From: Escherichia phage Huey | DNA: 38,575 bases | Sequence record: PQ850609.1 | Strand: one strand, 5' to 3' | Shown: positions 14,439 to 16,337 of the stretch, piece after piece | Position numbering within the stretch: position 1 is the first letter of the stretch | Layout of the letters: each line of letters begins with the position of its first letter | Notes under the pieces: model-generated | The model's database searches: none | What the model saw: the letters and a program-made list of their open reading frames with translations, nothing else | What the model was told of the DNA's origin: nothing | Position numbers and translations under genes: made by a program

Positions 14439-16337
14439 ATGTCAGACATTACACCCAATGTTGTAGTGAGTATGCCTTCGCAACTCTTCACTATGGCTCG
14501 TTCTTTTAAAGCCGTAGCTAATGGAAAGATTTATATCGGGAAAATTGACGCTGACCCGGTAAACACTGAAAACCAGATTCAGGTTTATGTAGAGAACGAA
14601 GATGGTTCTCACGTTCCTGTTTCGCAACCAATCATCATTAACGCTGCTGGATATCCGGTATATAACGGACAGATTGCTAAATTCGTTACCGTGCAAGGCC
14701 ATTCTATGGCTGTTTATGATGCCTATGGTGCTCAGCAATTCTATTTCCCAAACGTGCTGAAGTATGACCCGGACCAGGCATTGCCAGCATTTAAGGCTGA
14801 TTTGACTGGTCCTGATGGTGCTGACCTTGTTGGTTATGGAGATTCCACTGTCGAGGCAGAGTTAGACATCCTGACTACATCTAATGGGTGGTACGTAACT
14901 CCTGATCAGTTCGGCGCGAAGGGTGATGGCACTACCGATGACACAGCGGCGATTAGTGCGGCAATTGCTGAGTGTGCTTCTACAGGGAAAACATTGCTCC
15001 TGCTTAATAAACGCTATGTGTGGAATGGGCCAACCATATCCACCGATAAAATATCCGTTATGGGAGTCCGTCGCCCAAGCCCTGACGCGACGCTATCCAA
15101 GCTGGAAAACGGCAGCATCATTGTCGGTACCATGATATTTTCCGGAACTCGTGTTCAGGTGCAAAACTTTGGTGTAGACCACGGTTCAGCCACATTCACT
15201 TCTGGTGGTGATGCGCTAGTGCTTTCCGCAACTGGAAAGAATGGGCTGTTTGGTATCATCCGAAACTGTGTAGGTCTTGGAAGAAACCCATCTGACGCTT
15301 ACCATGCAATTCTCTGTGAGGGTTACAAATACTCAACGGTGAGAGATATCATTGGCTGCCAGAACTTATATGGCTATGCACAGAAATGTAATTATTCCGT
15401 ATCAAGCGGTGTTGTAGTAAAAAACAACCAAAACGGAATAATCATCAAATCAGACAGTGTATTTGGCGATGGAAGCCAATCAATTCTTAGTGATGCTGTT
15501 ATTGATGGTAATGGATTAACATCTATTGGCGTTTGGGTTTTCTCGCTGGATGCACAACTTCAAAAAGTAAACATAAGTAACGTGACCTCGTCTGGTTGCT
15601 CTTATGATATCGTGGTGCAGGCTGCTGAGAACGTCATTAATGAAATTAATATTAATAACGTAGCTGCGAGTTCATCACGCATTGCATCAATCTGCCTGGC
15701 TGGAACTGCAGTTGATAAAATTTACACAGCCAATATCAGCAATGTTGCTATAGGTGAAGCAGCGGGAATGCTAATAGATGCCCAGACATGTAACTTCCTT
15801 AACCTGACAAACGTAACTGGACGAATAACAAACGAATCAACGCATGCTAACGACTCAATAAACATTGGAGCATTAGTAGGAAGCTCTAACATCAGCAACG
15901 TGTTCCCTACCATCAACTACAGTCAGGATGTACTTGCTGGCATTACCTATCTTAATAACTATAAAAACAACACGCTTACCAATTATAAGGCGAACGTGTT
16001 TGGTGTTGGGGCTCCGAAACCAGGTTACGACACGCAAAACATTGATACCAATGTCGGAAGCATGTACCTGAGGATCAGTGCAACTAACTCTTCATTCCTG
16101 AGGTTAATGCCACTTAGTAACTCATCCATTACGACGCTTAACATCACCACTCAAGCAGGTGGAGTGATAAGCCCGGGTTACACATGGTGGTTACAAAACG
16201 CATCACCATCATTCACGCTGTCTATAGTTCCATCATCAGGAGGTCACATCGTCACTTCAGGCAACTCTACCAAGGTGCTTAGCGGTGGAGACAAGATAGG
16301 ATTCATGTTCGACGGAGCGACATGGATTCAGATTTGA
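14439..16337 (+). CDS. Tailspike protein (P22-like head-binding domain plus distinct beta-helix receptor domain)
   Basis: From ATG 14439 (AAGG SD) the first ~110 aa align with the P22 gp9 N-terminal domain ([48 protein letters not shown]); remainder has pectate-lyase-like motifs ([15 protein letters not shown]) and Asn/Ser/Thr-rich beta-helix character. Confidence 0.85.

Follow-up and report, generated by a model that had tools for sequence, protein, structure and literature searches.

The tailspike of Escherichia phage Huey probably joins a P22-type anchor to an O16-recognising β-helix module

The protein encoded at positions 14439–16337 (+ strand) of the 38,575-nucleotide sequence of Escherichia phage Huey (PQ850609.1; this whole stretch is the window analysed here) is very probably the single receptor-binding protein of a temperate Lederbergvirus, with a P22-type anchor, an O16-recognising β-helix module that is likely an O16 endoglycosidase, and a gene that is a mosaic in two layers. 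In the mechanism we propose, amino acids 1–113 would dock a presumably trimeric spike on the tail hub, and amino acids 117–632, consisting of a hinge, a β-helix, and a C-terminal sandwich, would recognise the E. coli O16 O-antigen. The receptor module is most likely a hydrolytic endoglycosidase acting on O16, which would let the virion work down the LPS layer to the outer membrane. The older layer of the mosaic is the fusion, at the motif YDPDQ, of a Lederbergvirus anchor to an O16 module also borne by siphovirus and Kayfunavirus anchors. In the recent layer, the whole gene and the leader passed together, as a single cassette, between Lederbergviruses that are diverged elsewhere.

Domain architecture of the Huey tailspike

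The gene consists of 632 codons and a stop, as delimited from the list of open reading frames, Pfam, alignment to structure chains, and megablast. Its reading frame ends at 16337. Translation starting with the ATG at 14439 yields a 632-amino acid product, which a start at a further in-frame ATG, at 14343, would lengthen by 32 residues. The gene ends the virion module, following the ejection-protein genes and adjoining the att/int region, and the order of genes around it matches Bas106, Sf6, and Sf101. The PF09008 domain, the YDPDQ boundary, and the position closing the virion module are those of a P22-like tailspike. The N-terminal domain, YDPDQ, and a location closing the late operon are common to Huey and the tailspikes of P22 (gp9), Sf6 (gp14), HK620 (gp9), and CUS-3 (an endosialidase). 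The P22, Sf6, and HK620 proteins also share the β-helix type of receptor domain with Huey, whereas that of CUS-3 does not. In published comparisons Huey falls close to CUS-3 and HK620, whereas P22 is the neighbour of Bas106, Dewey, and Louie (PMC11990801).

The head-binding (virion-attachment) domain (14439–14777, +; amino acids 1–113) was delimited by Pfam PF09008 and the P22 and Sf6 chains, and its last residues are VLKYDPDQ (amino acids 106–113). The Head_binding family PF09008 matches amino acids 1–113 over profile positions 1–113 of 113 (E=8e-66), and the PDB chains of P22 gp9 and Sf6 gp14 align with amino acids 1–114 from the chains' own first residues. These matches bear out the initial annotation, in which residues ~1–115 had been aligned with the P22 gp9 head-binding domain through VLKYDPDQ. 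At the nucleotide level the segment is 82–93% identical to ~20 P22-like phages, with the match stopping at nt 339, and its pN/pS is 0.07–0.09 against Sf6 and CUS-3.

Three codons, Ala-Leu-Pro (14778–14786, +; amino acids 114–116), form the joint, which was located from junction alignments and from the start of tblastn homology at amino acid 117; in the junction alignments these residues resemble neither the P22-like nor the lytic-phage homologues. Because homology to the latter begins at the amino acid 117 hinge, the P22-type boundary and the lytic-phage-type hinge lie three residues apart. The hinge or neck of the receptor module (14787–14900, +; amino acids 117–154), delimited by alignment with Bas82 and Bas105, opens AFKADL...GADLVG, for which the equivalent in the lytic-phage tailspikes is SLRSDL...GAGLVG. 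A helix spans amino acids 138–148 of the hinge in the AlphaFold2 model, but pLDDT is <50 up to amino acid 149.

Fold of the receptor module

The AlphaFold2 model is a monomer predicted from a 9-sequence alignment, with pLDDT of 85–95 for amino acids 150–520 and moderate values for 533–632. Amino acids ~155–524 (14901–16010, +) are predicted to be a right-handed parallel β-helix, with an N-cap motif at 158–172 and a helix at 169–182, followed by a C-terminal β-sandwich at amino acids ~530–632 (16026–16334, +), in which the β-strands have pLDDT of 57–89. The C-terminal domain has a weak match to Pfam Phage_depo_C in Huey (E=0.048), and the same family is precomputed for homologues P0002–P0005, P0007, and P0008. 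For the β-helix, PF12708 (pectin-lyase-like, IPR011050) reaches 25.9 bits, just short of the 27-bit cut-off (E=1e-5, amino acids 157–408), and is precomputed for homologues P0002–P0005. The pectate-lyase-like motifs noted initially are thus weak by sequence and clear by fold, as judged from the model and from structure matches.

Because the fold ranking is flat over hydrolases, lyases, epimerases, and adhesins at 8–17% identity, the β-helix fold leaves the chemistry undecided. A GH87 α-1,3-glucanase (7c7d), Det7 gp208 (6f7k), and φ29 gp12 (3gq7) are β-helix hydrolases or tailspikes of similar fold; they have 13–17% identity to Huey without a family assignment at the sequence level, and their substrates are unrelated or unknown. 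A search of PDB sequences with the alignment profile was dominated by the homologues' foreign anchors, and the β-helix contributed mainly the N-cap and weak stretches of 1rmg and 3jur. Homology to the P22, Sf6, and HK620 receptor domains across the β-helix, including the catalytic Asp/Glu pair, was absent from phmmer and hhalign alignments, which stop at amino acids 182–199. Catalytic residues could likewise not be transferred from HK620 (D339/E372) or Sf6, as hhalign aligns these only to about amino acid 199.

Relatives and distribution of the receptor module

A tblastn search with amino acids 115–632 matched 15 of 50,697 phage records, all of them E. coli phages. Identity is 97–99% in four Lederbergviruses, 53% in Bas82 and Bas105, and 33–35% in nine siphoviruses, with coverage of 99–100% from amino acid 117. 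A search of 5.8 billion clustered proteins yielded ten relatives only. Megablast with the DNA of the module found no match in 5,426 complete E. coli genomes, although 184 sequences of other assemblies make up cluster P0001 (97% identical), and one prophage of a draft genome, L005, carries the module. Prophages that bear it appear to be rare as residents of E. coli.

The closest relatives, Bas106 (CurroJimenez), Dewey, Louie, and APC_JM3.2, are Lederbergviruses that carry the same gene (99.2–99.5% nucleotide identity over all 1899 nt) with the same leader and the same architecture. The genomes around this cassette differ, with flanks 60–75% identical or unrelated. Their tailspikes differ from that of Huey at 6–13 amino acids, every one at position 129 or beyond. 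Among six near-identical gene copies, all differences lie in the receptor module (14823–16334; amino acids 129–632) and amount to 26 distinct nonsynonymous and 7 synonymous changes; I546 and M557 are private to Huey. Diversifying selection in the receptor module was considered and rejected: pairwise dN/dS is 0.46–2.0 on 10–20 substitutions, which is suggestive at most, and the pooled ratio of 26:7 does not depart from neutrality (p=0.47).

The more distant relatives are the tailspikes of the O16-dependent BASEL siphoviruses (Bas70–73, Bas77–80, and Bas82), of Kayfunavirus ElsieAttenhofer (Bas105), and of vB_Ec_DUEC01, which are homologous across amino acids 117–632 at 34–53% identity and 99–100% coverage. 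They share with Huey the hinge motif, the FGAKGDG N-cap, and the C-terminal sandwich, but their anchor is of the TSP1/Gp66 type (PF18668), in contrast to the P22 head-binding domain of Huey. DNA identity to these genes is only 64–75%, in patches, so the exchange with them is old. They have been placed together as an O16-targeting tailspike group (Fig 11A of Humolli et al. 2025; PMC11990801).

O16 recognition and a candidate catalytic ladder

Huey, Dewey, and Louie are temperate Lederbergviruses that were isolated on E. coli K-12 with its O16 O-antigen restored, and they plaque only on an O16-positive host (PMC12243541); infection by Bas106 likewise needs the O16 O-antigen (PMC11990801). The glycan specificity, which the initial annotation had left unnamed, is thus given by published host-range genetics as dependence on the E. 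coli O16 O-antigen (PMC12243541, PMC11990801). By tblastn, the Huey receptor module is homologous over its full length to the tailspikes of O16-dependent phages. Enzymology has not been reported for members of this module group, and the BASEL paper contains neither 'hydrolase' nor 'depolymerase' (PMC11990801).

Eight amino acids (D258, H289, E294, K316, K337, S338, D339, and D371) are invariant in the alignment, in sequences down to 24% identity, and none was hit by the recent substitutions. E294, K316, D339, and D371 are located at or just past the C-terminal ends of strands 289–294, 311–316, 332–337, and 363–369 of the AlphaFold2 model, which look like equivalent strands on successive rungs. 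We therefore propose E294, K316, K337-S338-D339, and D371, along with D258 and H289, as a candidate catalytic ladder. The repeat unit of O16 is composed of Galf, Glc, O-acetylated Rha, and GlcNAc. It contains no uronic acid, which makes a lyase mechanism impossible, and from this we infer a hydrolytic endoglycosidase.

A β-helix module that only binds O16, as a lectin-like spike devoid of catalysis, is an unlikely alternative. Such a spike would leave unexplained why acidic, His, and Lys residues stay invariant at equivalent strand ends on successive rungs and are spared by recent change. It would also depart from established precedent, as all characterised Lederbergvirus tailspikes (P22, Sf6, HK620, and CUS-3) are, to our knowledge, enzymes, and a podovirus with one receptor-binding protein has an O-antigen layer of at least about 10 nm to cross.

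Start codon and the colanic acid label

Two annotations carried by records of near-identical genes bear on the nature of the product. The first is the start. The in-frame 32-codon extension (14343–14438, +), taken from the list of open reading frames, is annotated as part of the gene in Bas106, Dewey, and Louie (Pharokka) and in P0001 (PGAP), whereas the short form starting at 14439 is annotated on the same leader in APC_JM3.2 (Prodigal) and in prophages A30 and PigCaeca_1 (PGAP). We consider it very unlikely that the true product is a 664-amino acid form from 14343 in which the first 32 residues serve for export in the manner of a twin-arginine signal. In favour of this form, the open frame includes an ATG, the peptide contains KRR-T-L-L-K, a mildly hydrophobic core, and K-F-A-A-S, and a weak σ70-like site lies at 14283–14311. 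Against this, the family homology and every solved P22 and Sf6 chain start at the Met encoded at 14439, and DNA homology to other tailspikes starts 1–8 nt 5' of this codon. Shine-Dalgarno pairing is weaker at 14343 (−1.0 versus −3.9 kcal/mol at 14439), and 12% of shuffled sequences have an open extension just as long. The upstream extension has no match at E<=10 to the NCBIfam or Pfam Tat-signal models, and promoter and terminator scans of 14100–16700 gave fewer sites than expected by chance. The extension is probably not translated, being over-annotated in some records, and the start is probably 14439. It is highly improbable that in lysogens the extension produces a Tat-exported tailspike isoform that trims periplasmic O16 chains and so blocks superinfection; if this were true, the isoform would replace the O-antigen-modification gene absent from Huey.

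The second concerns the coding sequences of Bas106, Dewey, and Louie: their GenBank note reads 'with colonic acid degradation activity', which would make the receptor module a colanic acid depolymerase. A Foldseek match to the Phi92 gp150 colanidase (E=7.7e-6) points the same way. The identity to gp150 is 12%, however, with the sequence match confined to the N-cap motif (amino acids 158–203; profile E=5e-5), and gp150 is one among dozens of equally good β-helix matches. The phages form no plaques on K-12 without O16, although K-12 can make colanic acid, and the GenBank note is an automated structure-based Phold label at odds with this phenotype. A colanic acid substrate is accordingly hardly credible, and recognition of O16 is preferred.

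The joint as a recombination point

Homology detected by blastn to HK620, Sf6, and CUS-3 begins 1–8 nt upstream of the ATG at 14439 and stops at 14777, the final base of the Gln codon of YDPDQ. Homology to Sf101 likewise stops at 14777, and that to two E. coli prophages, A30 and PigCaeca_1, at 14776. DNA homology is thus lost within 1 nt of 14777 in six independent comparisons, with identity dropping from 85–96% to background, and in megablast ~15 phage records stop at query nt 339. The divergence placed initially beyond ~14790 hence begins at 14778, and the view of the joint as a module-swap point is upheld by these six breaks and by the different module that A30 and PigCaeca_1 carry after YDPDQ.

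In A30 (horse; L012:4705–6942) and PigCaeca_1 (pig; L013:4705–6942), the leader and head-binding segment (14235–14776) are 96.5% identical to Huey, after which identity collapses past YDPDQ. Their 745-amino acid tailspike has an unrelated 630-amino acid module that starts LRQDLAS... directly after YDPDQ. This protein has a weak GDSL/SGNH-esterase signal (E=0.0014, below threshold) and may be a spike of the O-antigen deacetylase type. The tailspikes of Huey and of A30/PigCaeca_1 are a natural near-isogenic pair in which the exchange took place at exactly YDPDQ. We conclude from the sequence comparisons that two modules make up this mosaic gene and that their joint, where the head-binding domain ends, is a real recombination point.

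Base composition does not shift between the two parts of the gene. The receptor domain had been described as AT-richer with lower GC, which is incorrect: GC is 0.434 in the head-binding part (GC3 0.416) and 0.448 in the rest of the gene (GC3 0.418). The 137 codons 3' of the joint (amino acids 114–250) are the GC-richest (0.499), and only amino acids 251–500 form a low stretch (0.417). Both parts are within about 1 SD of genome windows of the same size (15th and 21st percentiles; genome GC 0.477). The description of the C-terminal part as rich in Asn, Ser, Thr, and Ile holds clearly for Ser (10.8 versus 6.2% in the head-binding part) and Thr (8.5 versus 3.5%), and also applies to Gly (10.6 versus 6.2%); Asn and Ile are only slightly enriched. 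Enrichment in Ser, Thr, and Gly is usual for β-helices.

This lack of a compositional shift is what vertical descent of a nonmosaic gene with a C-terminal part merely diverged past recognition would predict, but that explanation has next to no probability given that identity falls from 85–96% to background at a single position in each of six comparisons, and given the 53% identity of the receptor module to tailspikes with wholly different anchors (siphovirus Bas82 and Kayfunavirus Bas105). The initial annotation had proposed that a mosaic would be contradicted by full-length alignment of the C-terminal domain within the same phage family and an unshifted composition. Both were literally found, the former in four phages of the same genus; the criterion was ill chosen, since the mosaic gene itself is shared by those four.

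Transfer of the whole cassette

A noncoding leader (14235–14438, +) travels with the head-binding segment. The mobile cassette starts with it on the left in APC_JM3.2, in L005 (a prophage in a draft E. coli genome), and in four complete E. coli genomes. A 224-nt leader query gave matches beginning at 14235 in four complete E. coli chromosomes (99.5–100% identity), none of which carries DNA of the receptor module, and homology to L005 also begins at 14235. A scan of 14000–17600 against Rfam (E<=0.1) gave no match. The leader is 100% identical in Bas106, Dewey, and Louie over 14215–14438 and in APC_JM3.2 from 14235, and the identical block in Bas106, Dewey, and Louie reaches left to about 14100. 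Identity between Huey and Bas106 is ~1.00 from about 14112 to 16374, as compared with 0.4–0.76 in the preceding gene and background downstream. The cassette of ~2.1–2.3 kb, composed of the leader and the complete tailspike gene, is thus at least 99% identical among otherwise diverged phages.

The backbone of Huey has other affinities. Its virion genes match those of Sf101 and CUS-3 at about 96% identity, and the 96.8% identity to Sf101, a backbone relative, stops at 12485. In the head-binding domain, identity is 100% with Bas106 and only 85% and 90% with Sf101 and CUS-3, respectively; the domain therefore came in with the cassette. A gp16-like ejection/transglycosylase gene (SLT domain; 11587–14214) lies 5' of the tailspike. 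This gene is a patchwork, with 96.8% identity to Sf101 up to 12485, a segment of other origin at ~12550–14100, and Bas106-identical sequence thereafter.

Just upstream of the cassette, L005 (L005:9496–9708) and A30 (L012:4104–4298) contain an orphan 65-codon piece of a different head-binding domain (MSDITTNAVVVNPRPIF...), followed by ~185 nt of foreign DNA and then the cassette at the equivalent of 14235. As judged from this arrangement, the orphan fragment is a scar of whole-tailspike replacement by illegitimate recombination. Because of the Bas106-identical block, the cassette-borne head-binding domain, and the scar in L005 and A30, the latest event in Huey was a move of the whole cassette rather than a swap at YDPDQ. 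The initial idea that host range is set by a domain swap at the joint is therefore right about modularity and the swap point, but the newest exchange moved ~2.1–2.3 kb of leader and whole gene.

Region downstream of the tailspike

Between the tailspike and attP (16338–17447), Huey has no O-antigen-modification gene. Such a gene occurs at the corresponding position in Sf6 (oac), HK620, Sf101 (O-acyltransferase B), and the PigCaeca_1 prophage (SGNH hydrolase and acyltransferase). A 28-codon hydrophobic open reading frame (16356–16442, −; MNSKIVVAINIVAFVLLVYFVNKHHPFM) is located just 3' of the tailspike stop, inside a block of 98.7% identity with prophage L005; in Bas106, Dewey, and Louie a 32-amino acid hypothetical protein is annotated at the equivalent position. 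Within the open reading frame at 16479–16967, positions 16671–16967 (+) encode a partial UmuD/Peptidase_S24-like protein (Pfam E=1.9e-6, profile positions 8–83 of 116), and a 'DNA polymerase V subunit' is annotated at this offset in APC_JM3.2. The catalytic motif of UmuD, GDSM, reads GATH in Huey, and the protein is for this reason probably inactive.

An exact λ attP core (GCTTTTTTATACTAA; 17360–17374) adjoins a λ-type integrase with an Arm-DNA-binding domain (17448–18518, −). Homology to prophages L005 and A30 stops at 17378, beside ybhB-bioA. The exact core and this end of homology together indicate integration at λ attB, which fits with Huey lysogenising K-12.

Implications

The modular build of these tailspikes, their horizontal exchange, and their O16 specificity are already published for this phage group. 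To this we add, in small measure, the nucleotide-exact breakpoints, a natural near-isogenic pair that proves the swap at YDPDQ, and the finding that gene and leader moved as a whole in the most recent transfer. We also list residues that are candidates for catalysis, and correct the earlier statements on base composition, on the start codon, and on 'colanic acid' degradation. The O16 module may cleave a linkage new for tailspikes, for example β-Galf, and may found a new glycoside hydrolase family. In phages that depend on O-antigen, host range is determined by the receptor module of the tailspike, which is also the part employed to engineer host range and to build serotype-specific diagnostics.
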